A DNA stretch of 64,000 bases from Amphiscolops sp. MND2022 (Eukaryota). The stretch covers positions 46,686,001 through 46,750,000 of the forward strand of contig OZ076414.1 of the NCBI GenBank assembly GCA_964187785.1, given 5' to 3'. Shown here piece by piece: positions 1 to 63,652 of the stretch. How positions within the stretch are numbered: position 1 is the stretch's first letter; every line of letters begins with the position of its first letter. The notes beneath the pieces were generated by a model. That model searched no databases and was not told the origin of the DNA. It saw only the letters and a program-made list of their open reading frames with translations. Made by a program: the position numbers and the translations under genes.

Positions 1-517
1 ATGCCAGGAAGGTGTATATATTCAGGGTGTTGTAAAACATTCAATTCAATTTCTGTTGCGATAATACTTCGTTTGAAAAAAACTAAAATTTCTTTGAAGA
101 ATTCCAAGTTTCCAAAGAAATTTTCTCGCTTGCTAAAATGACTACTAGAAGCCATAAAAGGAAAGCTGTATAAGAACTAGCTTCTGCTGAGATTGAAACA
201 CATCTAACTGGAAATGGTCAAATACAAACCCCGTAGCGGGGACGAGCAAGTCTCCTAAGTTACATACCGGAAACCTGGAAGAAATGAAATCCACAGTTAG
301 AAATGAGATAATGTCCGATCTCACCAAAATCTTAACTAAAATCGAAAAGAAATGTTGAAACTGATCGCCCCTGTAACTAAAAAACAGTCTGCATTAACTG
401 TCCCTGAGGAAATTGATTTTAAGTCCGAAAACGTTCCAACAATTGCGACTTCGACACCTATCAAAACTAGAAATACTGCGACTAATCATAAAACAACTCC
501 GGTGAACAGTCGTAAAA
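1..517 (+). repeat. E1 5' LTR (3' portion only)
   Basis: Aligns with ~14756-15277 and ends GTCGTAAAA (GTCGTAACA in the 3' copy), immediately before TGGTAACAGG. Confidence 0.9.
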
Positions 518-535
518 TGGTAACAGGAGTCCTCA
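518..535 (+). promoter_or_regulatory. Primer-binding site of E1, tRNA-Leu-like
   Basis: TGGTAACAGGAGTCC directly follows the LTR end and resembles the tRNA-Leu PBS TGGTGTCAGRAGTGG. The E2 counterpart reads TGAAGACAGAAGTC. Confidence 0.65.
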
Positions 536-1515
536 ATGACTCCACGAATCTGGGGAAAAAGTAGACGCGACCACAACCTCCAAAAAGTCTGCCACCCAAC
601 GAACGTCCTTCGACATCGAGACTACTCTTCGCTCCACAACCGGAAAACTAGCAACTGTCTCACTTGCCCCCTATGCCAAAAGCCCTCACAGCATCACTAC
701 TGTGTTCGATGGTAAGTCCGAAAAATTCGAACTTTTTGAGGACTTATTCAGAAACAAAATAAAAATGTTACCACACCTAACCGAGATACAGAAAATCAGT
801 TACTTCCACTCATTACTACGCGGTAATGCACTTCAAGCATACTGCAACCTAGACGACGCCAAAGAAGATATTCTTGAGGAAGTAATTACGGAATTCAAAC
901 GGCGTTTTGGAGACTTTCAACCCTCCGCAAAAGCTAGATGCGAGTGGGACTCGCTACATTTCGACCCAATTAAACAAAAACTACATGAATTTTTGGACAC
1001 AATAAAAAAACTGCCAGTGAAGCGTTCAGTCCAGAGGCGCAGAAATTCATCGATAAAGCCATATACGCAAAAATGCCGGACCATGTCAAAAAGATACTTA
1101 ATCGCGCTTACCTCGAAGACAAGCCATATATTGACATTGTCCTACATCTCGAAAGAGAGATGCGCCTCAGTGGCCTGGGCGCTCCTGATGAAACCACTCT
1201 AGTACCGTTCAACTTGGTTGACGCCGTCCTTGTGGAAACACGAAAAGAACCCAACCAGCGGGGAAATTGCTTTCGTTGCGGCAAATACGGTCATTACAAA
1301 GCAGAATGCCGCAAAGTACGAAAGGACAGATACTATGAGATCAAGTCACAGAACGGCGTCCCCAACACAACTGAACCGACGAAACCAAAATGTGACACAT
1401 GTGGCAACACCCATGAATCAGAAAACTGCTGGAACGGAGCCAACGCGGCAAGCGACCCTAGAAAACGAAGACACCAGAGCAGCGACAAGCCGATCCCAAC
1501 TATCGAAATCCAGCC

Positions 1516-1522
1516 AAAAAAC
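1516..1522 (+). promoter_or_regulatory. -1 ribosomal frameshift slippery site A AAA AAC (gag/pol), E1
   Basis: Heptamer is in X XXY YYZ phase immediately before the gag TAA. The -1 frame reads KKLRSPRLRFG, matching KKLPKPRLRFG in E2. Confidence 0.78.
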
Positions 1523-4500
1523 TAAGATCGCCGCGCCTACGCTTTGGGGAAACGGTAGACACGAGGGCATATACGATCGAAGACCCCCGAATCGCTACAA
1601 AGAGGACTTCATGACGGAATGCATGGAAGAACCGACGCAAGATTGGCGACGTTGGAACTTAGGCATGATTCTCAGACATAATACCAGACACCCAAATGAC
1701 CCAACACGACCCCCCTATGGATAAGGGAGTCCTATGGCAATTACGCCACACTCAAACGACCGCTGCCAGAAACAAAAACTGACAAATTATACGTCTACAA
1801 CACGGATTACCGTTGCGACCCATGGGATGAACCTACCATCTACGACACTAACAAACTATCCTTCAAGATCCATGTCCCAAACCCACAAACACCGCCTGAA
1901 GAAATACCAAAACTTCCGCCACCTCCATCATCAATTCTAAAAACTTCAGAACCATTCCCGACAGTACCCGTCGCTGTCACGTCTACACCGATAAACGCTG
2001 ACGATAAATATTGCATAGAAGACAAGACGCTGTGGTCACGGAAATCGAAAGAACAAACAGTTGACTCCTCCTCCCCTCCACCACCACAAACTGCACCCGC
2101 TAGTGCAGTAACAGACTATCATGAAGAAGAAACGGAGTGCCCCCATATGACCTCAACGTCATCAAAATCATACAGCACGATAAAGAAGACGACTACATTC
2201 CGTTAATGTCAGCCATCACTCTCACGAAGAAAAGTCGGATGCTTCTCATCCCTCTTGAATTCAAAAAAAACAAAAATAGACGCCCTAGCTGATTCAGGAT
2301 TCGACATAAACGTCATCAGCGAAATGGACATAGACAAAATACAAAAAGAATCTAATGCATCCATAATAGGAAAAGCTCCACCACCCGCTTTCAAAATACA
2401 ATATTGCAACACGGAACTCGAAAAGGCTCTCGCGACATATACGATGAAGTTCAAAATCGGAGACTACACGTTTGAAGAGATTTTCATCATAATGACCAAA
2501 ACATCCTCCCCCATCATTGGCCTGGCGTTCCTCCGAAAACACTCAGCAATTCTCGACACTGCACATTGAACAATCGACTTCCCGAAAATACAAATCACCC
2601 TAGCCCTAACGGATGAGATGCAGAAGTGCAACCCGAAACCTATAACCATCAAGACAGGGGGAAAACACACCATCCCGGCAGAAGCCACACGGATTATACA
2701 CGCGTCAATAACTGTGAATAACGATCATCTAATAACTGGGACGGTACTACCCCTACCACAGTTTGACGAGACAGCAAAACTTATCGTAGTACCAGCAATA
2801 ACAACAGCTCGCGATAAACGCGTACCTGTAAAAATAGCCAACACCACAGACTTCCCCTACACCATAAAACCGCACACAAAACTGGGGGAACTACAAATAC
2901 TAAATCCAGAGGAAACGGAATCGGTCCGGCCAGTAGACATAGCAGCCCTCAATCTTCTCACCGAACACGGCGACGTCGTTGCATACGTAAATGCCTTGAT
3001 GCAAGTTAACTCCCCAGACCACGCAGAAGAAAAATTTTGGGTTCTCACTCCTGAAAACCCTGGAGACGAATCGAAGCACACACCCATTCAGCGGCGCATT
3101 CTTTGAGAACTACGAGACTTACAAAAACTAGAAGAACTAGACCCTAAACAAAATGAGAAATCTAGATCCTAATTCCTTTCAATGTTCAAGTGGAATGATT
3201 CATTTATAAGAGGAGAGGACCGTGAAAACCTAAAATCCATCATCGTTGAATTCAATGATATCTTCGCACGCCACCGTGTTGACATCGGCATGAACACTCA
3301 ATTCAAAGTCTGCCTAACACCTAAAAACGACAAACCAGTCTACACACAGAGCCTACCCGTATCCATAAACCTCAACGATGACCTCACAGTGGAACTGGCC
3401 CTGATGCATAGATACGGGATCATCACAACCCTCCATTGTTCCAAATAGGCCAGCCCTATCTTCGCACAACGTAAAACAAAACAACGGAAGACTGCGACTC
3501 CTAGTAAACCTGCGAAAAATCAGCGCCCTCATCTCTGATGACTACATCAACAACAACCACCCCATCAGCACCCTTTCAGATGCGGCACAACACCTAGCAG
3601 GGAAAAAGTTGTTCTGCAAACTTGACTGCTCCCAAGCCTACCACTACCTCGAAATGGCGGACCAAAGGTCAGTAGAACTCCTTTCATTTAATTCCGCTAG
3701 TAGGACGTTTGCCTACCGTAGGCTGGCCCAAGGACTTAGTAAGGCCTTGTCAGCACTTTCAAGTTTCATGCAAGAGTACCTTGACACAGTCATCAAAGCA
3801 GATCAGTGTGCCCAATATGTGGACGATATTGGAATTGCCGCCAACACAACGGAACAACTCATTAAGAACATCAGAGTCTTCAAATGTATACGCAAAGCTA
3901 GCCTAAAACTCACAATTGAGAAATGCCTCTTTGGAGTCACACAAGTGGAATTCCTCAGCGGAACTATTACCCCAAACGGAGTAGTTAACGGTTTCAAAGC
4001 GATTAACGCAAGCCTCGCGGAAGCCTGCGGATTTGAACTTAGACAACCTGTCGCAGGGAAACAGTATGTACTAATGACGGATGCAAGCTTCCGAGCATCT
4101 GGATACGCAATAATGATAGAGTAAAATGACGACAAAAAGTTGCTTTCCAAACGGAAAACCTTCGCAGCAGTCGCTTTTGGATCACGTGTATTCTCCCCGT
4201 CACAGTCAAAATTGTCAATATACTGCAAAAAACTCCTTGCAATCTATCACGCGTTCCTAGAAAACAGCCACATTCTGTTGGAAACGACATTACCAAACCT
4301 AGTACTCACAGACAACAGATCAGCAACGAGAATCTTCCAAACAAAACCTACACCACCTACCCTCTGGAACAATTGTGACTTTGTACTGCAATTCAAATTC
4401 CGCATCATGCACGTCGTAGGTTCGCAAAACACAGCAGCCGATTTCCTGTCTCGACTGGAACTAACCTCAAAAGAGAAAGTTCAACTCAAGCTACGAGACG

Positions 4501-4980
4501 ACATCATAACGGCGCCCAAAGAAGTCAACCTACAATCAACAGACGTCGCAGACGAAGAACAACTCATTTTCCTACCAGACGAAGAAGAGGAATCAGAACA
4601 ACAAATTTTTGCAAGAAAAGCGCTTATTAATAACCAGCAAAGGACGAAAGAGAACAACAAAACCTATCTACCGAAGTAACAGAAATAGTTCATATACCGC
4701 TCAATACGGCTGTCTATGCATTTGGAGCCATCAAAGAAAATGCACGCATACGCAGCGAAGAAGATGCGGACCCGGTTTTAAAGGCACTAAAATTACGTCT
4801 ACTACATGAAGAATATGACAAACACCTTAAAACTGAACCAAGGGGACGAAACCTATTACGTCATGAAGAGAGAATAATAGTCAAAGACGGAGTCCTCATG
4901 CGCAAATACTACGGTGAAGATGCCACAGTCACACATCACCAATTTCTAATACCGAAACATATAGTACCAGAATTACTATC

Positions 4981-6166
4981 AAGACGGGAACGGCCCGAGT
5001 CGGCGCCATATCTAAGGCTCAAAAACAGCAAAAGGACTTCAAAGTGTCAAAGTATTTTCTTCTACGGTACCGGAAAACCCAGAAGTTGAACCAAATTGGC
5101 GCACCAGAGGAGACACTTTGATCTTTTTAATCCATTCAATGGCAAATCATCAAAAAAATTGAAATAGGGGCACTTTTGGTGAAATTTTTTTTCTGAAAAA
5201 AAGCTTCACAATGCCGAAAAACTAAAAGGGGGACCCTTTGGGATTTTTCAACATCCGTTCTGTCAGAAAACTACCAAAAAATTGAAGGGAGGACCCTCTG
5301 GGGAAGTTTTTTTTGGAAAAAAAGTCTCACAGAGCCGAAAATACTCAAAGGGAGTACCCTTTGGTTCCTTTGAGTTTCTTAGATGATGTAATATTACTAC
5401 TTCGCAAGCTTTTGCGCCAGTATTTTAAATTTGATAATAAGAATTGTAAAATTTTAGGATTGTAAGAATTGTAAGAAAAGTGGACCGATCAGTGTGAGGA
5501 TTGTAGTCTGAAGAAGAAACAAGCCGGGAACGGCCCAAGCCGGCGCCATATCTAAGGCTCAAAAACAGTGAAAAGACTTCCAAGTATTCTCTTCTACGGT
5601 ACCGCAGAAACCCAAAAGTTGAACCGAATTGGCACACCAGAGGCGACACGTTGAAATTTTTTATCCATTCTGTCGCAAATCATCAAAAAAAATTGAAGGT
5701 GGGGCACTTTTGGTGAAAAAATTTTTTTTTAAAAGTCTCACAATGCCAAAAAAACTGAAGGGGGGACCCTTTGGGATTTTTCAACATCCGTTCTGTCGGA
5801 AAACTCCAAAAAACTTGAAGGGGGACCCTTCGGGAAAAAAAAATTTCGAAAGAAAGTCTCACAGAGCCGAAACTACTCTAAGTTCCTTTGGTCTTTTTGA
5901 GTTTCTTAGATGATGTAAAAATACTACTTCGCAACTTTTTAAAGTATTTTATTTAAATTTGTTAAGTAAGCATTGTAAGATTTTAAGATTGTAAGAATTG
6001 TAAGAAAAGTGGACCGATCAGGGTGAGGATTGTAGTCTGAAGAAAAAAAAGGTCACTGCTATAGTCGGGCTTTTTTCCTTAAAAGGAAAACGAAAACGCG
6101 CCGACTAAAAACAGTCATTGCTATTGTCGGGCATTTTTCCTTTAATGGGAAAGCGCCGACTAAAAA
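4981..6166 (-). mobile_element. Helentron/HINE-like non-autonomous element, head-to-tail dimer of a 540-bp unit, inserted in E1 integrase
   Basis: Units start at 4981 and 5521. Inverted pair AGTCGGCGC (4998-5006) / GCGCCGACT (6153-6161), terminal A/T run, no TSD. Pol reads VPELLS on the left and KMNKHLGIT on the right. Confidence 0.72.
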
Positions 6167-6500
6167 TGAACAAACACCTGGGAATAACCAATAAGATTCA
6201 AGAAAGCCAAACCAAATACTATTACCCGGGACTAGCTCGGAAAATCAGAGCTTGGGTAATCAACTGCCCTGACTGCCTAGCTAACAAACGCATAGACACG
6301 CGACAAATACGACCAAAATGCTCAGCAATACAGATTTCACGTTTGGCCCGGAAAATTGCTCAGAAGTCGATATTCTATCGAACTTACCCTCTTCAAACGG
6401 CTACAAACACAGCATAACAATGATGGACGTTTTCTCTCGATATCTCTTCGCATACCCTACTCAAGACATGACATTACGACGCCAATCGTGGCAAAACAGT

Positions 6501-6855
6501 GACTGCAACAAATCTGTTGTAGTCTTATGTGGATTCTTCAATTGCATTATAACACATGCGTTTCAAGAATTGAGGAAAGTGGAAAGAACTATTTTTCTGG
6601 ATTCTTGCACTGATACCGTGTGTAACCTGCGAAGAATCGCCAAAAGAAAATTTCTCTCGTTTCTCTCGATTCTTGAAAATGTGTGGATTCTTCACAAAGC
6701 AATTATTAGTTGGCGTTTATTAGGTCATTTACTGGAGTTACTAAATTTCTGTGGATTTTTCGTTTCGTCTGAATTCACCGAAATACCATTAAAGAAAACT
6801 TGTGGATTCTTCCATTTGTATATGAACATTTTTGTTGAATATGTTGGACTGCCAG
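6501..6855. mobile_element. ~355-bp insertion in E1 integrase with internal TGTGGATTCTTC repeats
   Basis: AACAGT on both flanks (6495-6500, 6856-6861). Motif copies at 6528, 6682, 6750 and 6801. AT-rich and unrelated to the surrounding pol. Confidence 0.65.
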
Positions 6856-8235
6856 AACAGTCGGCCGATGCATAGTTGACGTCATGACACGTCATTGCTA
6901 TCTACCAACAGTGATTCTCACCGACAAAGGATCACAATTCCGCTCGGATGTCATAAACCAAAAAGCACAAACGCTCGACATTTGAATCAGCCATGCATCG
7001 ACGAAACACGCCCAAACAATATGGATACTCGAAAGGACTCATGCATCATTGAAAACGTTCCTAAAGATATCGACAGGAGAGCGACGCTCAATGGGGCACA
7101 AATACGTACAAATTGCGGTCATGAACTACAACACGAGCTACCATGAAAGCTTAGGCTGCGAACCGACAGCAGTGTTTCGCGGACGAATACCGTACAACAT
7201 TCTGGACATCAAACTGGGACTCAAGCCAGAATGGGAAAATGATGCCAACGAAGACCTAACGGGCGAATTACAAAAAACAAATAACAGAAATTCATCAGGC
7301 AGCTAAGGACAACCTTATGCAATTATACTTGAAGTACAATCGATATTACGATAAAAAAGCGACAGCAACGCCGTTAAAAGTCAATGACTACTGCTATCCG
7401 AATCCTGTCCTGAATCCGAAGGCTGATAACCAGTCAATGCAATTCGCTTTCAAAGATTGTATTTGGACGGGACCCTATATAGTGGCCAAAGTCCTTTCCA
7501 ACCACAACTACGTCGTAAGGCGAACAGGAACAAGGTAAACACAAACCCTCCATAGAATTTCCCTAAGGCTATATGCGCCCAATCAACCAGTACCTGACGT
7601 AACAGTCAAAGCGGAAGATCAACTTCCAGACCCTGAGGTTAAGACAACCCATGATGATTGGTACGCGCAAGCTTGGGAAACCGAATTCGGAGAAGTTCTG
7701 ATCGGTTAAGCACCGGAAAAAGTAAGTGAAGAAGGTGCGATTACAGAAGTTCCATTTGATAACGAATATACAACGGAAAATGAAGCGGTTATAACAACTG
7801 CGGAAAAAATCCAACCGGGGATAAAACATCCTCCGAAGATATTACGTCATTCAGATTGGACGTTAGTGATAACCGTTACATAACGTCTCCACCGCCCATT
7901 GAAAGTCTTCCAGTGCCGCCTACCCTACCGGCTATAATCATTGGATATAATCCTAGAAAAACGGGAAGATAAATTCTACGCCCTAATCTTAGACCTAATG
8001 CACATCCTGATTTCCAGATGCTAGACGCTGTCACTATGAACGAATTAGTTCAAACTCAAGAATAAATAAAAACAATCAGATAACGAGACCGAACTGGAAT
8101 GGCTAATTTTGCTCTACCTATGCTCTAAACTACATAAATACAAAAGACAACAAAGGTGCAAACTTCAAAGAGCTCAAATACAATAACAATTGACTCCAAA
8201 TGTCAAAAAACAAGATGAAATATAAAGAAAGAGGT

Positions 8236-11200
8236 CTATAATTTCTCCAACTTATGGAAAACATCAGGATCTTCGTCATTACTCTCTTTCCTTTTCTTAG
8301 GCTTCTTTTTGATCTTTCTCTGAGGATTGGAACTTGTGGGAGCTTCCTTATTGGGACTTGATTTCCCAGTAACTTCAACACGTTGACTAACACCTTTGCC
8401 TTTCACTGGACCGGAAACATCGCTACTGACCGTCACTGATGCGGATACATTTTGCTGAGCTCGGGCAAGCCAATTACTCTTGTTAATATTCGTATAATGA
8501 TTTTCCAATGACTGCCGGCTTTCCGATAAAAACGAACTATACAAGCTGCAATATCGAGACAGAAACGTTTCAGCATATCCACCACAAAACTCCGTCCACA
8601 GATCGAAATTAGAAGCTACATAAAACACTCCAGCATTAGCGATAGCCTCTTGAACAGCCTCCAACGTAGGGTCAGTAAAAAAGCACTTAGGAACATGTCC
8701 GGGGCTCAGGACATAACTCTGCAACAGAAGCAAACACTATTGAAACTTTCGCTCGGGAAGCTCACTTCCACCCAAATCAAAGGTCACAGCAGGATAAGCC
8801 TCCCGGGGCCTGCACGTAATCAATATACACAGCTTCAAAACTCGACAAGCATGCACACGAGCTTGAAAACCAAAATCTCGCAGCAACCAACTGACCATAT
8901 CGGGTATCTCACTAGCCACTCCCTTGGACGCCTTGTACTGGACACGCCTTTCCACAACATAGCTGCTGAACTCTTCCACAGCAGCCTTGGACTCATCAAG
9001 TAATAGGGTCCCACAGGTTTCCAAAACACGGAAAAGATCCGCGAGCAGACGAAAAACTAATTGTCCGTCACCTTCCAACAATAGTTCTGGACAAAAACTG
9101 TACAGTCTGCGCGACACCCGAGACGTCACCCTGGGGCACTTCAGAACAATCACAGTCAGTCGGTCAAGAAACTCCCGACAACGCACACGAAATGTACTGA
9201 ACTCGCTTGTTTTTCCAGCTAACAATTGAAGTCCAAAATCAGATCCAGCAAGAAAATATTCCAAGGCGATTGTAGGAAACTCAGCAACCTTCTCTCCACT
9301 CATGAATTTTTCTCATTCTTTCAAAATCGGCAAGCTCTCAGTAACAATAAGCAGTAAACGAAGTTGCACAATTCACCGTACCGATGGAATCCGTAGTCAC
9401 TTCGTTGCTGCAGTAACTTTGCACAATTGACATGAACTGAAACAAACAAATCTAATAAAGAAACTACCTTAAAAACCCATGGAGAACTCGCGAGAACAAA
9501 CAGACAAGCCAACAGTTAAAGACAGGAGAACAGTTACAACTGTTAAACTCACATGTATTCAGAACAAGCCGCCATAAACCGAGACGATACGGTGTCATGT
9601 TGTCCGCGGTTATATGCCAGTCAGTCCCCTTCATCTGCAAATGAACAACGAACAGAATATGCAAAAGGGGAACAAATAGCAGAAGAAAACGGCAACAAAT
9701 TGCCCACAAATCGATAACCTCAGATAAAAATGCAGGTAATCTGCAAATTCAACGGAGCCCTGCCAGATACACTTACGAAGGATAAACTTATCCTCCGTCC
9801 AATCCTCGTAAAGAGCACTCTTGAGACGATGCACCAGATACTCCACTAGAGTAATCACGCTGACCATTCCGAAGACATCCTGATCAGCTTGCAACACACA
9901 ACGAAGCAGGGTTTTCTCATCAAACCACTGATAGACAACAAACCGACGTCCATCAGCGCGATTGTCGTCCAACACGCGAATCAAAGACGGCATGGCCCCA
10001 AGAATAGACACAGGCAATTGGCTCGTGCTCAAACTACCGACAATTCTTGATAACGGCACCAGTTCCGGAAGGGGTACAGCTTGATCCAAAGACTCGCAGC
10101 CAATACAAATTTTCTTAACATCCTTGTCGTCCCAAAACACCAGGTAACAACGCTCGTCCTTGCAATCTTTTTTGAACTGATTTCCATAACTACGGAAACC
10201 CACGATACTGCCCAAAACGACCTGCAATACTCGTGGGGCAAGGCCTCGACACAGAAACGACTAAAAATTACAATGATGATCTTACTCTCGCAGACACCGA
10301 ACAAATTCATATGATAAAATTACCCAACAAAAAAAAGAAAAAGAGGCGAGGAGCACAAGAGGAAAAAGAGAACAGCAACACTAAATTAACTACTCACCAC
10401 AGTCTCAGAACGGCTCCAGTTTAACGCAAATTGTGGCTCTTGTTCCTCAGTCAATGAAGCAAGGAAATGGCCCCACAATCGCCGCAGCAGAAGGAAGTCG
10501 CCCCACTACGCAGAAGTTCGCACAAGCACCCCACTGACGTCATAAAGGGCACTTTTGAATCAACTCGTGAGTGTTCCGACAGAAGATCTTCAGGGAACGG
10601 ATACCCTTCACTCAGATCTTCAGAGGGTCTCGATTGATAGTCGGCCAAATGGCTGGCAGACAACTCCATTGGCTTCATGAGTCTTATCAACTCCGGCAAC
10701 TTCATATGTACGCGATGAGTGACGTCCTTGAACCAATGACCATCAGACTGCAAATGGCGCGCAAATTCCCCGGAACCGTGAGCTTTCATGCCGACATCAC
10801 GATGACATACGCGGCATAAGAAAAACTTGCTAGAACCACACTTTGGCCCCGACACGAAATCGGGAAACGCTGGATGAAGACTCAACATTCGCCGTTGCAG
10901 GAAGTTGCGACTACAGTATTTTTTCACCTTAAGTCGCTTGGACAAGCGGTCACCCACTTTCTCAGCAAAATCGTCAAGACCTAGAACACGCACAAACAAC
11001 CGTCAAGTAAACCACCACGAACAAAAAAGAAAAATATCATAACAACAAACAAAAACAACTAACCTGTCTGCAACTGAGTTTCCACACGGCCCGCAAGCTG
11101 CCGCCCAAACTCCAGTATATCTTGTGGACTGAGTGTGTTACCACCATTAAGAAGCTTGCGTTCTGGCTCATCCTGACCTATACAAACCAAATAATAAACA

Positions 11201-12043
11201 CCCCTCCAATAACAAATATGCTACATGAAAAAACTTCCTTAGGAACAACACTAACTAATCCAACCAGGAGCGCGAGTCAATAGCGGAGGCGTTGGAAGAT
11301 CTTTTTTTGCTCGCTTGGGATGTGTCGCGAAACCAACGGAGATCTTACGGACAGCACTCGTCCTACCTGCTAAACAAACAAAAACAACAATTATAAATCA
11401 CTTCTTCACCGCGCCCATTCCGGAAAACAATAGAACCAAAAATACTATTCCTTCTTTTTCGCTTGAACGGGGGGGCATCAGTCTCACCTCCTTGAGACTC
11501 ACTTTTCGAATCAACCGCAGGAGTGGAAACATTGTCTGGAGTATGAGGCCGATTCTCAGGCGGATCAATAACAACACATGACGGGACGTCAGCGGAGCAA
11601 GAAGGAACTAGGGCGGATGAAAGTCAGGGCTCGGGTGCCCTGAGGACGGAAGTCAATAAATCATTACCAGTAGGACGGGCATCCAGCACAGTTGAAACTG
11701 GAGGCAACATGGAAGAAGTAGAAACAGTTGCGTCTGCAGAAGTAACACAAACAACAGTAGCTGAAGTCATGACAGGTTGAGGTACGGAAAATCAAGTTCT
11801 AGTTCCGGGTAAGACTATAAAAGGCTGATCACCAAAGATAAAATAGTCCAATTACCCATGAAAAGTCAGAAAGATTTCACCAACCTGTGCCAGCACGTAC
11901 AAACTCTGCCTCCGATTGCACATCGTCATCAGTGTAATTGAAAGTCGTCTCATTCTCCCTAAGAAAACCAACAAAAAGAACAACTGGGGGATTATTTTCA
12001 CTCTCCATCACGAACGAACAGCGCAAGAAACGTTCAAAAAGAT
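8236..12043 (-). pseudogene. Spliced antisense accessory gene of E1 (low-complexity N-terminus, C2H2/BED-like finger, possible hAT-derived body)
   Basis: GT-AG introns 11815-11884, 11367-11445, 11178-11255 and 10981-11063 join exons of 159, 369, 111 and 114 nt in frame. CRVC-x16-H-x5-H finger. Homologous to the E2 antisense gene. Confidence 0.8.
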
Positions 12044-12561
12044 CTAAAACAAGAAAGAACAATAAAGAAAATAAAAATAAAAACTCGTTATTCAGTGGCG
12101 AAAATTAACAACATTCAAACACAATCAGAAAAGAAGAATCAATCTCGCATTTTTCATAATTATCCTAGCCTACTAAGGCAATAATGGAAGCTTACAACTC
12201 CCAGAATTCAAAACGGTCAAATCGAAGAGGAAACATTGAAAAGAAGGAAATCATCTTCCAAATCATGACGTCACACAAAAGATATCCCTTCGGAAAGGAA
12301 CCAATGACGTCATAACGAAGATTAAAAGTTAGAAGTTTCTCTTCTCGGCTCAGCAAATAGTAAGAGGGACGGTAGCAAATTGTTTCCGAACTAAAAGTCA
12401 GACCGAAACGAAAGAAGGAAAACCGACCAATGAAATTACAGGAAAGCCACGAACAGATGAAAGTTGACCTCTTCATTCGCTGAACAATAAACATATTGAG
12501 CAGTCCGCTTAAGAAAAAAAACAAATTCATCAAAGTTCAAAATAAATCTAGCTGATCCAGA

Positions 12562-13213
12562 ATGGGCAACTACGGATTAGTTATCGACATCTCTTCGGAT
12601 GAAGAAAACGATAGGTACAGCACGCCTATTAAAACACTACCCGTACACTTAGTGGGGAGACTCAATCTGAGTGATTCATCAGTTGAGGTTTGGAGAGGCA
12701 GCGAAGCGGACCTTGAATTGACTCGGGAATCTGCCTCTACATTTGAATCAGATCAACAAGAAGCCTTCATTGTATAAAATCAGCGAGGAACAGACTCCGA
12801 TGACTACTTTGAGTAACCGGACTCATCACGGGAGATGCCTGAACTGACTCGCGCACCAGTGCTAAGAGACGTCACGAATGAGAGGGAACGAAAATACGTT
12901 CCCCCATCAAAAACGGGAAAACTAAATTAACTTAGCGAACCCTCTATTGAAGAAATTGAAGAAGCTCATGGACTCAAACTGAGCGACGAAAACTACTGCA
13001 CTGCCGGACGAGACAATTCATTCTCCTCGGCAAAAATTCTAAGAGCGCGGAAACAACCCGTCCGAATTATACGCGAAATTCCTCACTGTACCGGAGTGCC
13101 TGCCTTCAAAGCCAGAGGTGCCCTCTCACGGCTCGCTCCCGGTCGGTGTTACAATTTCCACGATGGAGTACACAAACTTACCTCCGGACTTGGCCATGGG
13201 GCCTTTAGAAAGT
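12562..13213 (+). pseudogene. Extra sense ORF of E1 between the antisense gene and the 3' LTR (unknown function, several in-frame stops)
   Basis: MGNYGLVIDISSDEE... frame continues through isolated stops to ...GLGHGAFRK*; A/C-rich coding-like composition. Confidence 0.5.
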
Positions 13214-13842
13214 AAATAACTTACTTTGTTTTCTTAAACTGTAGCACGACAGTGTATTCAGGCGGAAGTTTCCCAAACGTAAGCACAACGTGAATTGTTC
13301 CAAAATAATTCTTAGACAAAATAAAACTTCTGGTCTAATGTTTTCACACGCAAAGCTTTTTTCTATTTCCGGTTTTGTCTTCTGAAGTTTCCATACTAAT
13401 CTAAACACTAAAATAAGAACATTTTCTAAAGCGGAATCATTTCTTTTTTTCCACACTAAAACGAAATATTGAAAGTAATATTAACTCCAAAGTCCCAGCG
13501 GAGTTCATACAATCTAAAATGAAAAGAACATACAAAACAAAATATTGGAATAGGTTTTCCAATACTAAAAGTAGTTGTCAATATCCACTTAAAACCTCAC
13601 TCAAGTGATTTTAAGCAAATGTTTACAACGATCTGACAGCGTCACTCAACTAGGCTGATAACGAGTGTTTCTATTTTTACGGACCAATAGCGTCGCTTCT
13701 CAACTGAATTATTTGAGCTCAAGCTAATAAAATAGTGCTTGGTTGCCCCTAGCAACGCCAATTAGCTCAATTAGCTGAGGGAAGGAGAATGAAATCGACC
13801 AAGCTCTCCGCTTTCTTTCCGTCAGCCGCCACTGTTCAACAT

Positions 13843-13998
13843 TACCTAATCTTAATACGTACGGAGCGCTTACGGAGCAAATTGTAAAGTGATGAAATCA
13901 TACCTAATCTTAATACGTACGGAGCACTTACGGACCAAATTGTAAAGCGTTGTAATTATCCCTAATCTTAATACGTACGGCGTGCTTGCGGAGCGGGG
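13843..13998 (+). repeat. 58-bp tandem repeat (~2.7 copies) abutting the E1 3' LTR
   Basis: TACCTAATCTTAATACGTACGG units start at 13843, 13901 and 13959 (TCCCTAATC variant in the third). Confidence 0.92.
13990..13998 (+). promoter_or_regulatory. Polypurine tract of E1
   Basis: GGAGCGGGG immediately before TGTAATGA, the LTR start. Confidence 0.7.
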
Positions 13999-15277
13999 TG
14001 TAATGATTGAGATTACTCTAGTTCATGATAGTATATTCTAAAATGCATGAAACCATTACGGAATAAATTGATTTTTTGGAATAAGGGACTTTTTGTACCG
14101 AATATTTCCCCGTCATATTGGAAATGATTAAAACAGTCTTGCTGCAGGTTAAGACAAGGAAAATGGTTTAGTAAGTGCATTGTGATCAAATTAGAAAGGT
14201 GCTCTTTTTCTACCTTCAGAAAAGATGTTTTGGCCTTTGTTACTTTTTTATGTTGTGACTAAATAATCTAATCTTTATGATCTTTGTACATGTAAAGTTA
14301 ATTTAGATTAGCATTACGTAATCGAGCTGGAAAATTCAACCGTTAATCTGTACTCATCATTTTCTGGCATCGTTTGCTCCTTCCATAATGTAATTCGAAT
14401 ATTTTCAGTACGTTCGTTTAAAATTCTCCGTGATATCTTCGGAGTTATTTTTGCTTGTCATTCTTTTACCGCGAAAATCCGCTTAGTCCTGCGCTGAATC
14501 ATTGTTCACGCCAGCGTGCTTTCTTCGTAAGAAATCTAACTAGATTTTTATTTTGCCGCCTTTTCGTGATTAAACCGGAAATGAAATTGTTGAACAAAAA
14601 TGATTTCAACAAAAGCTCCGTGAAGGAGTCGCGACTAGGATTTTTTAGTCGTAAAATAATGGCCGAAAGACTGAAATAATAAGGATGATTGAGTATTTTA
14701 TTTGAACAAAACCGATTTTTAAGATTTCTAGGAATTTGTAGGCGATGAACAAATGATGCCAGGAAGGTATATATATGTGTTCAAGGTTTTGTAAAAGATT
14801 CAATTCAGTTTCGGTTGTGATAATACTTCGTTTGAAAAAACTTACTTTTCTTTGAAGAATTCCAAGTTTTCAAAGAAATTTTCTTTCTTCCTAAAATGAT
14901 TACTAGAAGCCAGAAAAAGAAAGCTGTAGAAGAATTAGTTTCTGCTGAGATTGAAACTCCTCTATCTGGAAATGGTCAAAATATAAACCCCGTAGCGGGG
15001 ACGAGCAAGTCTCCTGAGTTACATACCGAAAACCTGGAAGAAATGAAATCCACAGTTAGAAGTGAGATGATGTCTGATCTCACCAAAATCTTAGCTGAAA
15101 ACCAAAAAGGAATGTTGAAACTGATTGCCCCTGTAACTAAAAAACAGTCTGCATTATTTGTCCCTGAGGAAATTGATTCTGAGTCCGGAAACGTTCCGAC
15201 AGCTGCGACTTCGACACCTATCAAAACTGGAAATACTGTGACTTATCATAAAACAGCTCCGGTGAACAGTCGTAACA
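13999..15277 (+). repeat. E1 3' LTR (~1.28 kb), containing the Gag N-terminal ORF from 14896
   Basis: TGT...ACA termini; last ~520 bp match 1-517; MITRSQKKKAVEELVSAE... is intact in this copy. Confidence 0.85.
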
Positions 15278-21500: not shown

Positions 21501-21689
21501 ACCGAACAGATGCTGCACCGTAGATGCGTCAGAAGTTGTTTCCCGGAGTCAAAAGATGAAAGAGACTAAAAAACATCAAAAATTGCTAATAAATTTTAAC
21601 CAGGAACCCAAAAATAGTAAAGCATGCGAGGAACATCTCTGCAAACTTTGTGGCGGAAGTCTAAAGAACGAAAACCTACCTTCTGATAA

Positions 21690-49800: not shown

Positions 49801-50011
49801 ATCAGTCCATTTTTGGAGCTTGTACAGGTTGTCAAAAACCAACGTTTCACCGTTATTCATGAATAAAATGATTTTTTCGTTAACTGTAAGCACAAATCAT
49901 CCCTTCTCCTCAAATCACGTGTTAATGTAACTCGAAGGGCGGTGAGATCATCATTGACAAAGATGTTGGTGTTTTTTATGTTCCTTTTGTTCTTCATAAG
50001 TTGGTGTTTAC
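46880..50011 (-). mobile_element. CR1/L2-type LINE (ORF1 C-terminus + ORF2), interrupted at its 5' side by E2
   Basis: KNTNIFVNDDLT ORF1 end; HIDYIL, TDHF APE; QGVPQG, CADD, LNASKTE, SNLDYC RT motifs. Confidence 0.85.
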
Positions 50012-51150
50012 TGTGATGTCCCTCACTCTGGATTAAGCTTTCAGCTTCACAATTCCTGGAAGTCGAGGCTGTGTTCTCGAATAAGATTTCGCTTGCTCCG
50101 GTATCCAGGTTATCTGGATTTTCATCAGATAAGGAATCTATCTTGAAAGAAAGATTTTCTACCATCTTCAATTTTCTCTCTGTTTGGTCTCAGTTTCCGT
50201 AAGCCTTCTACAAACGGACTTTTCAACTCTTTTAGAAACTTCAGAGAAATCCCTATCAGGTATACTGGGCGCGTTTTCCGTCCTCAGACGTGCAGCTTCT
50301 GGCTCTTCGAACGAGCTTGCAGGGGAATCTCTCCTTGCTTTCCTTTTCAAAACCTTTTCTGGCAATTTGAGTGAATTAGAAAAGAAACAACAATTGTTTT
50401 GCAACGTTACTATTATTTCAACTGAACAAACTTAGCTCCTTCATCGTATTTATATTTATCACCAGCAAAATTGAGGGAACCAGGCAAACAATGTGTTTAG
50501 CAAGGAATCAGAGTAAAGAAACTTTCTGAGCTGAGGCTGCGCGTCAGGCCGGCGTCCCGCTTCATTCATTCGAGGCCGGCCTCCAGGCCGCGGTACTGTA
50601 ATTCTTTTCCTGGGGCTGTTCGCCAGGCCGTTTGTTACTGTTTATATATTACCGGATTAAATACTATCAAAGGCGCGGTGGTTTCACGTTGGTTACTGTA
50701 CAGTACATATGTACTTTTATTGGTATACACATATTATTATGAATGTCTATTTACTTTGTATTCTAGCGGCAAAATTTAGGTTGTTATTGAGATTGTATGT
50801 CAGTTGTGTTTGGCGTTGTTCTTCTGATTGTTCTTTCTTTCTATTTCCCGCTTTCTTCTAAGTAGACTGGGTACTTATTGCTGCCGAACTCAGAGCTCAT
50901 CTGGGGCTGTGACAGTCCCTGGCTTCTTCGCCAAGTTCCTTCGGGGAGAACAAATTGGGAAATTGATCGGATAGGTGTTTCGAAAAGAGTCGGGAGATCG
51001 TCACGCATCGAATAGTAGGTGCGCCATGTACAGTCGCTTTGCCAGCTACTGCCTGGCCTGTACCCTTCTGAACTGCTACTTGCGCTAATTGTGCTCACAA
51101 AGACGTCATCTGGAAAAACAGGATCGTCTGTAGTAAACAATTTTATCACA
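50012..51150 (-). repeat. E2 3' LTR (~1.14 kb)
   Basis: Termini TGTGAT...ATCACA form a perfect 6-bp inverted repeat. A purine-rich tract GAAAAAAAAACGAACAAGG precedes it on the - strand (51151-51170). Its outer boundary cannot be confirmed from the second copy. Confidence 0.7.
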
Positions 51151-51587
51151 CCTTGTTCGTTTTTTTTTCGTAGATAGTGTTGATTCGCGTTCGTTCGTGG
51201 ACCAGTACCACGTGTTGATCTTCCGTCATGACAATCTTGTAAGTAATTCTGTTGCACGTTCGGTTAATTGGGTGACAATTGGGTGGCGATGTAATGGGTT
51301 TTTGATTAGGTTGATGTCCGTCAAGAATAAATATATCTTCTTGATTGCTTTAGTTGTTAGTAATGTGATTCATTTTTCTGTAAGCAGAGTGTATTTCGAT
51401 CGTTTTGTAGTGCAACTGATTCATTCCGCTTTGAAAAATCTGTTTACACGGTTCGTGCTAATCCTATGAAATGTTCAGTTCTTATACAGAACAAATTTCC
51501 TTATATAGTAAATAACTTGTTGATATTAAAATCCATGATTTTACGCCACGTCTTTTTTTTTAATCTCATGTCGTTTGTTACTTTCAG

Positions 51588-54500
51588 ATATTTTTGCAAG
51601 AAAAATGTGCTCCACTGAGGAACATAGTGCTCTGTTGCACCGTAGTCGAGAAGCGGGATTGGTGGAGAGTGGAGCAGATATTGAGTCTGTCGTTGTGTCA
51701 GTAGTTCGGGAAGAAGGAAGAGAGAGAATGTGGATGACGAACAGGATGTGTGTGTAGAGGCTAGTTTTGCTGAGACTGGGACTGCTGCAGGTCATGGTTT
51801 CGGCGAGAAGGACAGCTCCAGTGATAGTGGTAGTGGTGAGAAGGATTTTAACGATGACGTGGATAGTGAGGATGTGGAGTGTCAGGCTGAGACTGGATCA
51901 TTACATTCCGTAACTAGCGATGACCGACATGATCTTGCTTTCATTGCCAACAAGAAATGTAAGTTTTGCTAGAAGTTGATAAGTGGCCAGCCTTTTCTAG
52001 ATGGTTCGAACGCGTTCTTCTACCTCTACTTTTAATTAGTGACTGATGATGAGCTTGATGCCGACTATTGTCCTTCCTCCACTACCCGGTGACAGGGTAG
52101 GAAAGGGCTTCGCGCAAGTCGCGTGCTTTCTGTTGGGAGCGTTGGACCTTCCCGACGAGTGATGTTGGCTGATATCGTGTCTGGTGCTATCCCTGGGTCC
52201 CCAACACTGTGTGATAGTTCTGAGGACGAGTATGAGCCTCAACCATTTGTGCATCCAGAACATTTAAAAGTAGGTAATACATCGTCTTTCTTGTTATGTG
52301 GGAAAAACGTTTATGGATATATATTTTGGTTAGGCCATATCCCCTTTTCACATCTTTAATACTTGTTGTGTTATAGTCGCTGATCCCGACTCCCGGCCTG
52401 GGTTGCCTTCATCAGGTGAAAGTGATGTTTTCATCTGTGAGCAATCTCTGGATACACCAGCTCTTGAGAGTGACACTGCTTCAGTGTTACCAGACAATCA
52501 GATGCGATTTTCGCGGACTCCGCATGGTCGTTCGACACTCGGTTGTGAGCCATCCGTCATCCATAATGAGTGGGAAAACGGTACAGATGCATGTTTCCAC
52601 AAGATATTTCACTTAACGTTGTTGTTATTGGTGTTAGGTTTTTCAAAACCTGTTCTAGTGTTTTCTGTTGTTGATTGTTTGACCTTTCCCGTTCGTCATT
52701 GGCTGAATAATTACGGTTTTATCTTTCCTGTTTAGCTGGGTTGGAGTGTGTCCCTCCTGGTTTTCCCATGATGATATCCGCCCCTCAATGTGTGATGCTC
52801 GCTCGATGTGCCGCACGGACTGAACGGACTGAGTCAAAGAAAGAGACAAAGACTTCGGTTAAGCGTATGTTTTCCTTCTGTATTTCTATTCTATCAACTG
52901 GTTATTGGAATGTTTTGGGTTCCTTTTGTCATTGTTGTTTCGTCTTTCCTTGTGTTCTTGGTATGTAGCTTTGTGTGTCGGGTATAGTTTGCTTGTTCTT
53001 TGAAAATTGTCTTGTTTAGAATTCGAGAAGCTGTCTCGGTTACTCAAAGTGAAAGGGATTGGTGCCAGTGATCTCGGCCGCATCCTTGACCCTGTTGATG
53101 TCAGCAAAGAGAAGTTGTTGGCTCGTGACGAGCAGAGGGCAAAGCGGCAGTCTGAGCGTCAAGTCTTGACCAAGGCGATGAGTAGCCATCCCATCCCGCG
53201 CTTACTCGTCAGCCGACGCAACGACAAGATTCCGAAAGGGGTTAAATGGGGCCGTTTGTCAGAAGGATGTCTCGTTCCTGTCCCGTGGTCCCCAAGGCAT
53301 TTGGAAATATTTAAATGCAAATGGCACTATTTGAAAGATCGGAGATATCGGTTCGACCATGGGGATGTTATATACACAGAAAATTTTGGTGCCATTCCCG
53401 TTAGCGAAGTATCAGCAGAGTTGCGGGTAGATATTGAGAAGACGCCTCCGATCATTCTAGGCTAAGTGAACAAATTTCTCGAGAGGGAGATGGTTGCATT
53501 GGTTGGTGTCCCGTCCAATGTGCCACCCGCGCCACTCGTGGGTGGTTCGCTCGAGCTGTTGAGGAGTGGCGGCTCCCAGGTTTTCTTGCACCGACAATGG
53601 AACCAAATCAGGACCACAATGCCGGTAGAGATCCCTTATGTGTCGGTGACTTGGAGCAAGACTGAGACTTTAGTTGTGCTAGTGCAGACTCTGTATCCTC
53701 CTGTGCTGCGATGGGTAAAATCATGGCTATTCGTGTGTTGGGTCAGTGGATCCATTCCCTGTTGTGGAGTATCTGGCGCAGCGCGTGAGAATCTGGCACG
53801 ATTCGCCTCTGTCTTGAGGATGGCAGAGTCCCGTTTGAGGTATTATGTGATGTTCTGCAAGAGTTGTTAGAGAACTGGTCGGACGTGAAGATTTGTCTTG
53901 CGAATGATGTGTTGTTGATGTAGAGGTCTAACAACGTATTCGATCTCGATTATTCGCTTTGTTCCGATTGTCTGGGGCTGCCTCGTCTCGCGTTGCTGCA
54001 TATCGTGTTGTTTCCGGACCAATTGTGAAAAACTGTTTGAGCCCTCTGTTGAACATTACGCCTGCAGGAACTTTGTTGATTTTTGTTTTTTCTACTGTAG
54101 TCTTCTGAGTAAGGTTAAAAGAGTGAGCCGGCTGCCCTCCATCGACCATTGGTTCGATTATATCGACAAGCCTCTAACTAATTGGGCTAACGTTACTGCC
54201 GCTGAGTGTCTCCAGAGTGAACCTAGCATCCAGAGGGCTTTGCGTGGTTTCGACGACGCGCCTCGACGGTCCTTCTTGCGGAAGTGTCAGAGTTTCTGGG
54301 GTCGCCCGTTGGGTCAGTTGTCTGAGTGCGGACATGCTGACGAAAGGAAATGCCAATTACGTCGTGGAGCTGTTTCAGGACTTGGTCGCATGTTTCCAGG
54401 AGGCTGGCTATTTGGATAGTTTGGATTGGGAGGCAGCTATAAACCTACGTCAACAGTCAGCTGTTGGAGATGTGTTTGGGTATCTGGAAAGCAATGCAAG

Positions 54501-55021
54501 CTATCAATGTCAGACCCATGTAAAGCAGGTAATTCGTCTTGTGCGAGTCATTGTAAGCCCTGCTCCCGTTGCTAAGCCCGCCGCCGATATTTCGATTAGT
54601 GGGACAAATCTGCCGACAAGTGTTATCCGTTCCGGTCTGGGTGCAATACAGTCGTTTGTGCTCCATCCTAAGTTTATGGCAAGTGATTTGTTAACAGTGG
54701 GACATTTGCAATAGCTGAAAGTCAACCTGCCTGTTGGGCATCAGTTTCTAGACCGTAGGGTGTTTGATCCCTGTTGTGATGTAAGTCATCATCCTTGTGC
54801 AAGTATCTATGGTAGCTTGTTCCAGTGTTACACGGCGTTTTAGTCGAGTCAAGTTAAAGATTGCAGGGCCCGAATGTCGACTGCTGGTGTCTGTTCTAAG
54901 GGAATTTCAGATGTCGGTAAGAGTACAGCAGGATCTTCTTCCAAAGCAAGGAAGGGTAGTACCAGAGCTCAGCGGCATGGTAAAACAAATTGAAACTTGC
55001 TGGCATTTTGAATTTTATTGA
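51588..55021 (+). pseudogene. Spliced antisense accessory gene of E2, homologue of 8236-12043
   Basis: Phase-1 GT-AG introns 51959-52039, 52274-52376, 52581-52735 and 52865-53019; internal exons of 234, 204 and 129 nt. Shared blocks LKVK, ELLRSG, WS..ET and QS.VL.P. Confidence 0.8.
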
Positions 55022-60484: not shown

Positions 60485-61872
60485 GGCTCGGTAGCTTGTT
60501 GTGCCATGGTTTGTGGCTGCTGAGTGATTTGCGGACGTTGAAGAGTTTCTTTTGCGATTTGGTGAGGGATGTTGTTGGATCCTGTTGATTTTGGTATTTT
60601 CTACCACCTAGGGCGAGTTGCTTTAATTGCTCCAGAGTAGCAGTCTTTGGTTTCGTGGCTCATTTTGCCACATGTTTCCACAGGGTTTGTTTGTGTTGGG
60701 GATTTTTTGGGTTTTTTTGTCTCTATTCGTTTTCCCATCGTTACGGAGGAGATGGCCTGGGTGGCCGCAGCCAAAACATTTTTGGGTGGCCTGTGATTTT
60801 TGGTATTCATTCCTGGTCTGTGTTAGTTGTGGGTTCCCCATTATGGATGCCTGTGAATGGTGTGGACTCCGGGTTGGCTAATCCGTTGAGCTCCATTTTT
60901 TTCTAGGTGCTGCACCATCGTTTCGTATGATGCCGTTGCGAGGCGGGCTTTGTTCAGTACTCGTTTTAGGTGGACAAGCCTTTTTGCATAGAAGGATGTC
61001 TCGATGAATTTAAATGCATCGTCCGCATATGCTTGCGCTATTTTCTGGTAGAGCTCCAGAAAATCTTGGAAAGTTTGGCTTGTTGGGTCAAAGGTAAGGT
61101 TCTCCCACTTGCATTTGGCGGTGGCTACTCATTGTGTATTGACGTCTCTCCTGCGAAACCCTGCGATAAAATCAATAAGTTTAGATTTGGTGGCTTCATC
61201 ATATTACGGAATGTCTGTAAGGCGTCTCCTCGCAATAGAGAATGGAAATAGTGGATTTTTTCCTGCTCTGTTATGTGAGGATGGACGTTTAGGCTCGTTT
61301 GGAAAAGATCTTTAAAGAGTTTAAACTTTTCAGTTTTCACATCGAAATTTGGCATCGTTGTTGCTAGGGCTTTCGGTAGTCGAGGCAGGCTTGTGTTTTG
61401 CTTGTTTGCAGCATATAGAAATTCCAATAATTTGTCAATTATCTCATCAGAGTCCTTGAAGATCGGGGATGGGAATTATTATTGGAAGTCGGTTCACTGA
61501 TGACTTCTGTCTTCACGTGAAGTCCCTCACTCTGGGTTAAGCTTTCAGCATCACAATTTCTGGAAGTCGAGGCTGTGTTCTCGAATTGGAATTAGCTTGC
61601 TCCGGTATCCAGGTTATATCGATTTTTATCAGATAAGGAATCTATCTTGGAAGAAAGATTTTCTATCATCTTCAATATTTCTCTTTGATTGGGTCTCAGT
61701 TTCCCTAGGCCTTCTACAAACGGACTTGTCAACTTTTTTCAGAAATTTCAGAGAAATTCCTATGAGATATACTGGGCGCGTTTTCTGTCCTTAGACGTGC
61801 AGCTTCTGGCTCTTCCACTGAGCTTACAGGCGAATCTCTCCTTGCTTTCCTTTTCGAAGCCTTCACTGGCAT
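60485..61872 (-). pseudogene. gag: E2 gag, starting inside the 5' LTR
   Basis: MPVKASKRKARR start at 61872; FDVKTEKFKLFKDLF...IHYFHSLLRGDALQ; CFGCGHPGHLLRN and ETCGKMSHETKDC knuckles. Confidence 0.88.
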
Positions 61873-63355: not shown

Positions 63356-63652
63356 TTTTAAAAAACCAGAAGGGTCCCCTCTTCATCGTTTTTGAGCGCT
63401 GTGAGTTTTTTTCGAAAAGTTTTCTGATCCAATGGACTGATGAGTTTTCGCAAAGATTGTGGAAAAGATCTACGGTTTTTTGACGTTTCAACTTAGCGAA
63501 AAGCGGTGTTCGAGTCTTAATCGTATCCCTTCCGGTATTTTTCGGCACTGGTAAACTTCCGACAAAAGTGGCCCTTGCTTATTTTTGTATGCTCCAAAAA
63601 ATTTACTCTTTTGATCTTTCAGCGGGGCGTCGGGTTGGTCCAGTCCCGGCCT
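63356..63652 (+). mobile_element. 5'-truncated, diverged HINE-like copy
   Basis: AAGGGTCCCC subrepeat and 3' end GGCGTCGGGTTGGTCCAGTCCCGGCC, resembling GGCGCCGACTTGGGCCGTTCCCGGC. Confidence 0.6.

Follow-up and report, generated by a model that had tools for sequence, protein, structure and literature searches.

An antisense gene with predicted introns and a predicted hAT transposase-like fold in Ty3/gypsy retrotransposons of Amphiscolops

A stretch of 64,000 nucleotides from Amphiscolops sp. MND2022 (assembly GCA_964187785.1, contig OZ076414.1, positions 46,686,001 to 46,750,000 of the forward strand), hereafter the window, sits in a 1.07-Gb genome and contains two decayed Ty3/gypsy retrotransposons, E1 and E2, identified by a Pfam scan. 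Each carries, on the strand opposite to gag-pol, a long gene, for which introns had been predicted in E1 in a preliminary description made from the letters of the window. This arrangement raises the question of what the gene is, where it came from, how introns can persist in an element propagated by reverse transcription, and what the product does for its carrier. As argued below, it is a real, selected and probably spliced accessory gene, and its protein, as judged from structure models, is built like a hAT transposase and stands outside the active hAT family.

Searches of the genome with single exons of E1 and E2 returned at least 150 matches each, mostly long open frames, and two further alleles used as queries returned 54 and 95 matches. 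We fetched 38 loci, a non-random sample hand-picked for allele diversity, and in all of them, across four gypsy groups (E1 to E4), the gene lies opposite the reverse transcriptase (RT) and integrase, between pol and the 3' long terminal repeat (LTR); it was found only inside gypsy elements (38/38 loci, plus the chimeric locus L088 discussed below). Retention in divergent families, as opposed to a one-off host capture, is thereby borne out. Collinear profile alignment confirms that the genes of E1 and E2 are homologous and occupy the same place: E1-type and E2-type profiles match at E=2.5e-23 for exon 5, E=3.4e-13 for exon 6 and E=7.1e-28 for exon 8, and the window copies compared directly give significant protein alignments (E=2e-7 and 0.007). 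Of the sequence blocks listed in the preliminary description, ELLRSG, WSRSET/WSKTET, RCREF/KCQSF and QSYV/QSFV are truly homologous; DLFER/DIFAR, taken there for an exon start, lies upstream of the ATG and is not conserved in relatives. All matches of the protein database searches (33 and 41) were unnamed ENA entries belonging to the family, and in a search of representatives with 831 matches those inspected among the best 150 all belong to it. Three of these proteins probably come from other organisms: P0177 (at E<=1e-25) and P0113 (at E<=1e-40) have no match in the genome, and P0174 matches it only at 32-39%. A pattern search of JGI metagenomes gave 108 matches, none of which was confirmed.

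The carriers are Ty3/gypsy LTR retrotransposons. The LTR pairs of most loci are 96-99.96% alike, and only a few loci are truncated or rearranged (L001, L039, L057, L067, L075). A TG start and a common primer-binding site (PBS) were found in 14/14 loci, TG..CA LTR ends were seen, and an exact 5-bp target-site duplication, read by eye, is present in 12 of the 14. In young E1-type and E2-type copies, as in the window, Pfam places gag first, followed by protease (PR), RT, RNase H and integrase. The elements had been called giant; all seven measured are 15.5-16.6 kb long, below the limit of 20 kb used for that term in the accessible text of PMC6431247. As a control, eight loci of other gypsy lineages (~26% identity) were picked through an integrase profile, and seven of them lack the antisense gene. 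The remaining one, L088, is chimeric (noted at L088:2998): its 5' part matches L091 at 98.7%, and its 3' part, which belongs to a fifth, very divergent group of carriers, holds a decayed homologue that has diverged strongly (E 1e-4 to 2e-13). Midpoint-rooted trees of RT and of the gene, from which pieces below a length cut-off were excluded, agree on the groups E1, E4 and E2+E3; in the exon-8 tree E4 is not a single clade. In two regions of the genome, gene matches are evenly spaced at ~13.6 and 15.8 kb (G000:C10:2575662-2603293 and G000:C9:54623210-54655375), which suggests tandem arrays of elements with common LTRs.

The preliminary description considered the protein unrecognisable, and at the sequence level there was indeed no significant Pfam match, Dimer_Tnp_hAT included, and searches of PDB sequences gave best values of E=1.5 and 0.075. 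Its fold is nevertheless that of a hAT transposase. The core encoded by a natural single exon (770 aa) was modelled from a 29-row alignment with a mean predicted local distance difference test score (pLDDT) of 77.5, which is high in the RNase H-like region at residues 220-410. In the predicted core an RNase H-like domain is split by an all-helical insertion, as in Hermes. In Foldseek, Hermes fills the first 11 rows (best E 7.1e-4, probability 1.0), and VIA-align also ranks it first (Z 12.0, root-mean-square deviation 5.1, 399 residues aligned, only 8-10% identity), followed by ISCth4 (6.5), Tn5 (5.6) and RAG1 (5.3). Z values under ~13 can arise by chance in helical proteins; we accept this one because the mixed core is covered and because Foldseek, BFVD and Atlas agree. 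The single BFVD match below 0.001 is a hAT protein, and the named Atlas neighbours are the hAT families Dimer_Tnp_hAT, FAM200/ZBED5 and zf-C2H2_12 (0.89-0.91). There is weak evidence that the donor was Buster-like. The Buster-type Atlas neighbours, together with a gypsy element of this genome that bears a Monjiviricetes-type fusion gene, indicate that the host is probably an invertebrate animal. Active-type hAT genes are abundant in the same genome (at least 150 matches), and we note long transposase frames at L041-L045 (597-697 aa) with DDE, CxxH and TRW, some of them in several identical-scoring copies.

The catalytic centre of this fold seems to be gone. Across the groups of the 29-row alignment no conserved D/E was seen where the three catalytic residues should be: Q/R/K/H stand at the end of strand 1, the position after strand 4 is mostly G, and the Glu position likewise holds no conserved acidic residue. 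The TRW motif is replaced by VPF/VSF/VEF/VDF, and CxxH has disappeared, the strand 5 region containing neither C nor H. Catalysis was probably lost before the groups split, because L088 too has G after strand 4. What has been kept is an N-terminal CCHH zinc finger, present in 28-29 of 29 rows. It is the most conserved region among eight E2 rows (0.88 vs 0.66-0.72 for the remaining core) and only ~0.35 alike between E1/E4 and E2/E3. Atlas places it next to zf-C2H2_12/zf-BED (0.90-0.91, at low recognition).

The introns are supported by conservation of their boundaries. An exon-path search over 23 loci of the groups other than E4 found a stop-free GT-AG path from ATG to stop in 17, no path in two and no anchor in four. 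L003, L015 and L007 have eight exons with intron phases 1,1,1,1,0,0,1 (L007 by way of an alternative sixth donor), L013 has seven, exons 3 and 4 being fused, and L025, L027 and L052 have five, with all introns in phase 1; the other paths deviate owing to lesions or to read-through of open introns. The predicted spliced products of young relatives measure ~1,040-1,190 aa, in agreement with the ~1,000-1,200 aa proposed earlier. Among 24 E1/E4 loci the length of intron 5 ranges between 80 and 217 nt; a GT start was seen in 20/20 and an AG end in 23/23 of the loci in which the anchor motif could be located. In the E2/E3 loci it is exactly absent, with codons running uninterrupted across its position in 14/14 and the core forming one exon. 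This E2/E3-type clade (support 0.996) is devoid of the three 3'-most introns, and its absence of introns is more simply read as loss than as gain, because it is nested among intron-bearing relatives, whose predicted proteins enter intron-like sequence at the position of intron 5. Recombination with cDNA is expected to remove the 3'-most introns, and this route would apply here. Exact loss in a nested clade constitutes indirect evidence of splicing, and the gene is probably transcribed and spliced in vivo. That antisense placement shields the introns from removal is a sound inference, and the precise loss of intron 5 from one clade agrees with it. As a separate observation, intron 1 is unusually conserved, with a CAGC...ACGCGT block near the likely branch point in E1, E2, E3 and most E4 loci (window 11785-11884 on the minus strand; L013:5127-5237; L021:3615-3699), which may control splicing or act as a promoter element of ORF3, an open reading frame on the opposite strand.

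Against this background the E1 copy in the window could be delineated by mapping an intact-frame relative onto it, which yields eight exons running from 12008 down to 8236 on the minus strand, 69-82% alike to the relative; of the introns, six reach 26-59% and intron 1 reaches 74%. Exon 1 (11885..12008; 124 nt, phase 1) starts with the ATG at 12008. Exon 2 (11450..11784) is of low complexity, rich in S/P/A/E, and has broken splice sites on both sides; the mapping further places exon 3 (11256..11366), which is basic and proline-rich, and exon 4 (11064..11177). The best-conserved exon 5 (10398..10980) encodes the zinc finger, C-x2-C-x16-H-x5-H, and a helical region. Exon 6 (9691..10260), with its 3' end deleted in E1, corresponds to strands 1-5 of the RNase H-like domain, without conserved catalytic aspartates; exon 7 (9553..9634) is 82 nt long in all E1-group models in which it appears; and exon 8 (8236..9436) covers the helical insertion domain, the C-terminal lobe and a basic tail that resembles a nuclear localization signal. 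In E2 the gene is on the plus strand, with exons 1-4 at 51605-51958, 52040-52269, 52377-52580 and 52736-52864, four phase-1 introns, and a single core exon at 53020..54993 equivalent to E1 exons 5-8.

Both window copies are pseudogenes. The E1 copy is so classified because of frameshifts near 11470, 10503 (in exon 5), 9735 and 9343 (in exon 8), a 50-nt deletion near 9699, and stops, including one at 8734-8736 in exon 8; the E2 core bears several deletions and frameshifts. These lesions bear on the intron coordinates proposed earlier for E1. The 78-nt and 83-nt introns (11255-11178 and 11063-10981) match the mapped relative. For the 70-nt intron the donor at 11884 is right and the acceptor at 11815 is wrong, a stop following seven codons later; the homologous intron 1 is 11884-11785, its acceptor broken in E1. 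The 79-nt intron has the correct acceptor, 11367, and a GT chosen 4 nt off the broken homologous donor at 11449. Among the further candidates, 10324-10397 keeps its donor at 10397, there is no AG at 10324, and the intron is 10397-10261; 9635-9718 keeps its acceptor at 9635, the sequence at 9718 being coding in relatives and the true donor deleted; and 9468-9552 keeps its donor at 9552, with the acceptor at 9437 instead of 9468. The introns are also not all in phase 1, as had been supposed, since the three in the core are in phases 0, 0 and 1.

The gene is under purifying selection, as the preliminary description had proposed. For pairs at dS 0.1-0.4 (seven per exon), the median ratio of nonsynonymous to synonymous substitution rates (dN/dS) is 0.062 for exon 5, 0.076 for exon 6 and 0.128 for exon 8, i.e. 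0.06-0.13 overall, with medians of 0.053 for RT and 0.065 for integrase by comparison; single pairs range from 0.02 to 0.22. Most pairs are saturated (648/666, 470/496 and 617/630) and pairs are not independent. Near-identical pairs give 0.19-0.31, while at dS 1-1.6 the value is 0.49 for 15 exon-6 pairs, and a single exon-8 pair reaches 0.68; these figures were probably raised by underestimation of dS.

The gene does not share the history of the element around it. Eight pairs with similar RT were chosen for comparison, and in seven of them identity drops sharply at both gene ends: within groups the LTR, ORF3 and pol are mostly 90-98% alike, as against ~45-80% for the gene. In L027/L031 the LTR and ORF3 are 88-98% and pol mostly 81-100% alike, with the gene at 57-78%, and in L081/L083 values of mostly 90-98% fall to 36-65%; L017/L065 have a divergent LTR stretch as well, and the pattern in L007/L013 is not clear-cut. 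Over 81 within-group, non-independent pairs, the LTR tracks RT, with a Spearman coefficient of -0.63 against synonymous distance, and does not track the gene (0.28). Within groups the gene is thus seen to be exchanged as a cassette, with old alleles on young backbones. From this we infer balancing selection on the alleles; an alternative is that backbones sweep over a block too diverged for internal recombination. ORF3 itself, open in most young copies (186-301 codons from ATG, e.g. L013:3762-4461 and L021:2535-3110, both on the minus strand), is acidic and Ser/Pro-rich, without a significant Pfam match. Conservation of its C-terminus was rejected as a sign of protein function, since that part overlaps the polypurine tract (PPT) and the LTR start. 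In E1 and E4 it begins with VIDISSDEE or LIDISSSSEE, which we take to resemble a SUMO-interacting motif.

What, then, might the protein do? The LTRs offer a clue: TACGGA occurs 6-9 times in 7/8 E1 LTRs, CAGGCC 7-9 times in 6/6 E2 LTRs, and ACTAAT 9-15 times in 7/7 E4 LTRs. Because a group-specific finger is combined with a hexamer in the group's own LTR (in three groups), a dead hAT body and a basic tail, we propose that a captured, catalytically dead hAT transposase serves as a nuclear, sequence-specific DNA-binding regulator of its own element, a reading on which our judgement is evenly balanced. A narrower version, offered tentatively and with the balance somewhat against it, is that the protein is an LTR-binding trans activator or anti-silencing factor comparable to Tat or VANC, encoded by a polymorphic cassette that is freely exchanged and under balancing selection in response to host silencing, and that it helps the clade to dominate a 1-Gb genome. 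On this proposal, an intron-containing, Buster-like hAT transposon would have landed, in reverse orientation, in the stretch that separates pol from the PPT in an ancestral gypsy element, lost its catalytic residues, and stayed as an accessory gene with its own promoter, common to the head-to-head ORF3. Its introns would survive reverse transcription because they are invisible to the spliceosome in genomic RNA; in one clade three introns would have been removed when the cDNA of a spliced mRNA took the place of the 3' part. The protein would work like a transposase minus the cutting, entering the nucleus, binding short repeated motifs of its own group's LTR through the zinc finger, and promoting transcription of the element or protecting it from silencing. 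Template switching between co-packaged RNAs would move the gene among backbones, and rare alleles would be favoured, so that old ones persist.

Several points weigh against this proposal. One E1 LTR has only two copies of TACGGA, and E3 LTRs have no consistent motif. The match between motif and group involves just four groups with common descent, and the motifs may be sites for host factors. Fine co-evolution of gene and LTR within groups, as for VANC, was considered and rejected, as the LTR tracks RT. Compared with five host hAT transposases, the protein shows no similarity in sequence (E=0.51); the catalytic positions were set by the motifs of those five and by predicted strands, not by superposition, and a D/E at position 671 is conserved in E2/E3 and not in E1. 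Finally, fold searches with the finger gave nothing significant (ZBED1 BED E=2.3, Hermes BED E=5.3), and U1/SF3A-type RNA-binding fingers came out level with BED fingers (E 1.4-5.3).

The same fold, finger and basic tail would also suit a role at integration, in which the dead hAT binds LTR cDNA ends or target chromatin and helps the integrase complex with nuclear import, tethering or targeting. In favour of this view, hAT proteins synapse DNA ends. Similar roles are suggested for plant antisense ORFs in the accessible text of PMC7264820. However, the cassette swaps freely among backbones whose pol is 90-100% alike, which argues against a tight fit to integrase, and the repeated motifs lie inside the LTR, away from its ends, so that we consider this role unlikely. 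On the other hand, alleles that are deeply diverged although their backbones are nearly identical, with breakpoints at the gene ends, form the pattern of an incompatibility locus, and the protein could be a competition or exclusion factor that represses or blocks other copies or families, allele diversity being the very point of the gene; variants include self/non-self recognition, copy-number control and, given the abundance of active-type hAT genes, dominant-negative action on host hAT proteins. We think this improbable to a similar degree: the finger is nearly invariant within groups, and ORF3, 94-98% alike across gene alleles, stays with the backbone and does not move with the allele, hence the two form no matched toxin-antidote pair, an idea that was rejected.

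The weak finger search, in which U1/SF3A-type and TUT4 fingers rank first, speaks for counter-silencing at the RNA level, the finger binding RNA in a U1/matrin-like manner or small-RNA machinery, and convergent transcription making the region the main small-RNA target and favouring rare sequence. Synonymous sites are saturated in the gene where those of RT are not, which also speaks for it, but the finger matches are not significant and the entire hAT body is conserved, beyond the finger, and we rate this idea as quite improbable. An active nuclease or transposase that uses rearranged acidic residues would account for the intact RNase H-like fold with its high pLDDT and for some D/E conserved within groups. 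It is very improbable, as the groups have in common neither an acidic residue on strand 1 nor one after strand 4, the R/W of TRW and CxxH are lost, and the gene was never seen outside a gypsy element. That the gene is a neutral passenger, as the two window pseudogenes might suggest, is hardly credible, being already contradicted by dN/dS of 0.02-0.22 at dS 0.1-0.4; nor do we give more credence to predicted introns left unspliced, in view of the invariant ends of intron 5 despite its variable length and of its exact absence from E2/E3.

Antisense genes between pol and the 3' LTR are known from Grande, RIRE2, Retand and Boty (PMC7264820, PMC11963269, PMC4408406, PMC8365987, as far as their accessible text goes). 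According to the same portions of the first three sources, the Grande gene has its own promoter and a nuclear product, for which a DNA-binding regulatory role is proposed. In the plant Tat/Retand elements (Grande gene23, RIRE2, Silene Retand), to judge from those sources, the gene is present in most copies; it is also antisense, located between pol and the 3' LTR and conserved, as it is here, where the position recurs in 38/38 loci, all picked by the gene itself. The kinship suggested earlier did not extend to the cargo: Tat/Retand ORFs carry TRP28 or PMD domains, whereas here a whole hAT fold is predicted, with no match to TRP28 (PF04195) or PMD at E<=1 or E<=0.01. Furthermore, the gene described here has 4-7 introns, while the word 'intron' is absent from the text of PMC11963269 available to us; the protease lies within pol, unlike in flowering-plant Tat, so far as described in the sources above; and allele swapping is not mentioned for plant Tat/Retand in that material. 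The plant ORFs are stated, in the accessible part of PMC7264820, to have no similarity to other transposons, and the same text calls unknown both where antisense extra genes of LTR retrotransposons come from and what they do; the present origin appears traceable. Outside plants, brtn of Boty-like gypsy elements from Botrytis and Sclerotinia is also antisense and between pol and the 3' LTR, and the mentions of it considered here give no sign of a transposase-derived protein or of a ~1,100-aa product. Zhao et al. 2011 reportedly found brtn to contain introns.

The protein resembles hATs (Hermes, and the Buster-type FAM200/ZBED5/GTF2IRD2) in its N-terminal CCHH finger, RNase H-like core split by a helical insertion and basic tail, and differs from them in a low-complexity N-terminal extension of 250-350 aa. 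Like host-domesticated hATs (ZBED, DAYSLEEPER) it appears to have lost catalysis, but the domestication would be by a retrotransposon, with a multicopy gene mobile via reverse transcription. VANC of VANDAL and TnpA of Spm, the latter itself transposase-derived (bioRxiv 10.64898/2026.08.24.746577, accessible text), are likewise element-encoded accessory proteins with short motifs amassed in noncoding element parts, to which the group-specific hexamers of 3/4 groups here may correspond, a match confounded by descent. VANC and TnpA, however, belong to plant DNA transposons and were shown by experiment, whereas the role discussed here is predicted and the gene does not track the LTR within groups. 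Catalytically dead transposases as sequence-specific regulators are treated in the same preprint, in whose accessible text neither 'retrotransposon' nor 'LTR' occurs. Our literature search found no gypsy element with a hAT-derived gene, although a description is possible in subscription journals, Repbase or supplements; the accessible portions of PMC6431247, PMC13547354, PMC5408684, PMC4402516 and PMC5348765 mention no hAT cargo, and a link to the oomycete Chronos/Archon elements found no support in that of PMC5348765. The arrangement is known in plants and fungi, and the whole hAT cargo would be the new part.

If our reading is true, it would represent domestication of a whole class II transposase by a class I element, with an antisense gene traceable to a nested DNA transposon. 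The hAT fold suggests a function open to testing: the protein would bind defined LTR motifs and activate a reporter. The elements would be a natural version of the antisense-intron retrotransposition indicator, rare cDNA-mediated intron loss included, and their old alleles on young backbones a system for the study of balancing selection inside a transposon.

The carriers in the window have LTR identities of 85-94%. E1, on the plus strand, ends at 15275. Of its 5' LTR only the 3' end is included (1..515, followed by the PBS), the start lying ~1.6 kb outside the window; it is 89% alike over 2159 nt to the 3' LTR (13134..15275, from the LTR comparison), in which three 58-nt tandem units at 13843-14016 contain TACGGA. 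Pfam and alignment locate gag (135..1522, frameshifted, with a CCHC knuckle) and decayed pol with PR, RT, RNase H and integrase (1507..7276, broken up at 4980-6048). Decayed ORF3, acidic and Ser-rich (12424..13200, sense), is head-to-head with the antisense gene and crosses the PPT into the 3' LTR. E2, on the minus strand at ~50010-63400, comprises a 3' LTR with an internal deletion (50010..50914, outer end approximate), decayed ORF3 (50856..51373, by alignment), decayed gag-pol (56041..61397, by Pfam and alignment) and a 5' LTR (61517..63400, ends approximate). In E1/E4 elements the gag frame opens within the 5' LTR, ~250-390 nt in, and continues across the PBS (window 135-515; L014:5483-5873). 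The interruption of the E1 integrase at 4980-6048 consists of two ~530-nt tandem copies, 83% alike; the first ~90 nt of the unit recur, inverted, at 18049-18148, and the unit is probably a non-autonomous repeat. A LINE-like element with endonuclease and RT domains occupies 18815-22129 on the minus strand. Other gypsy lineages of the genome, which include an abundant family with a 1,610-codon pol frame, have long sense extra ORFs without a Pfam match bar one weak DnaJ (L085:3876-5900, 6463-7308; L087:3753-7672; L089; L090; L091), and a gypsy element at L092 carries a gene for a Monjiviricetes-type, env-like fusion glycoprotein (4447-5889 on the minus strand, E=6.9e-17).

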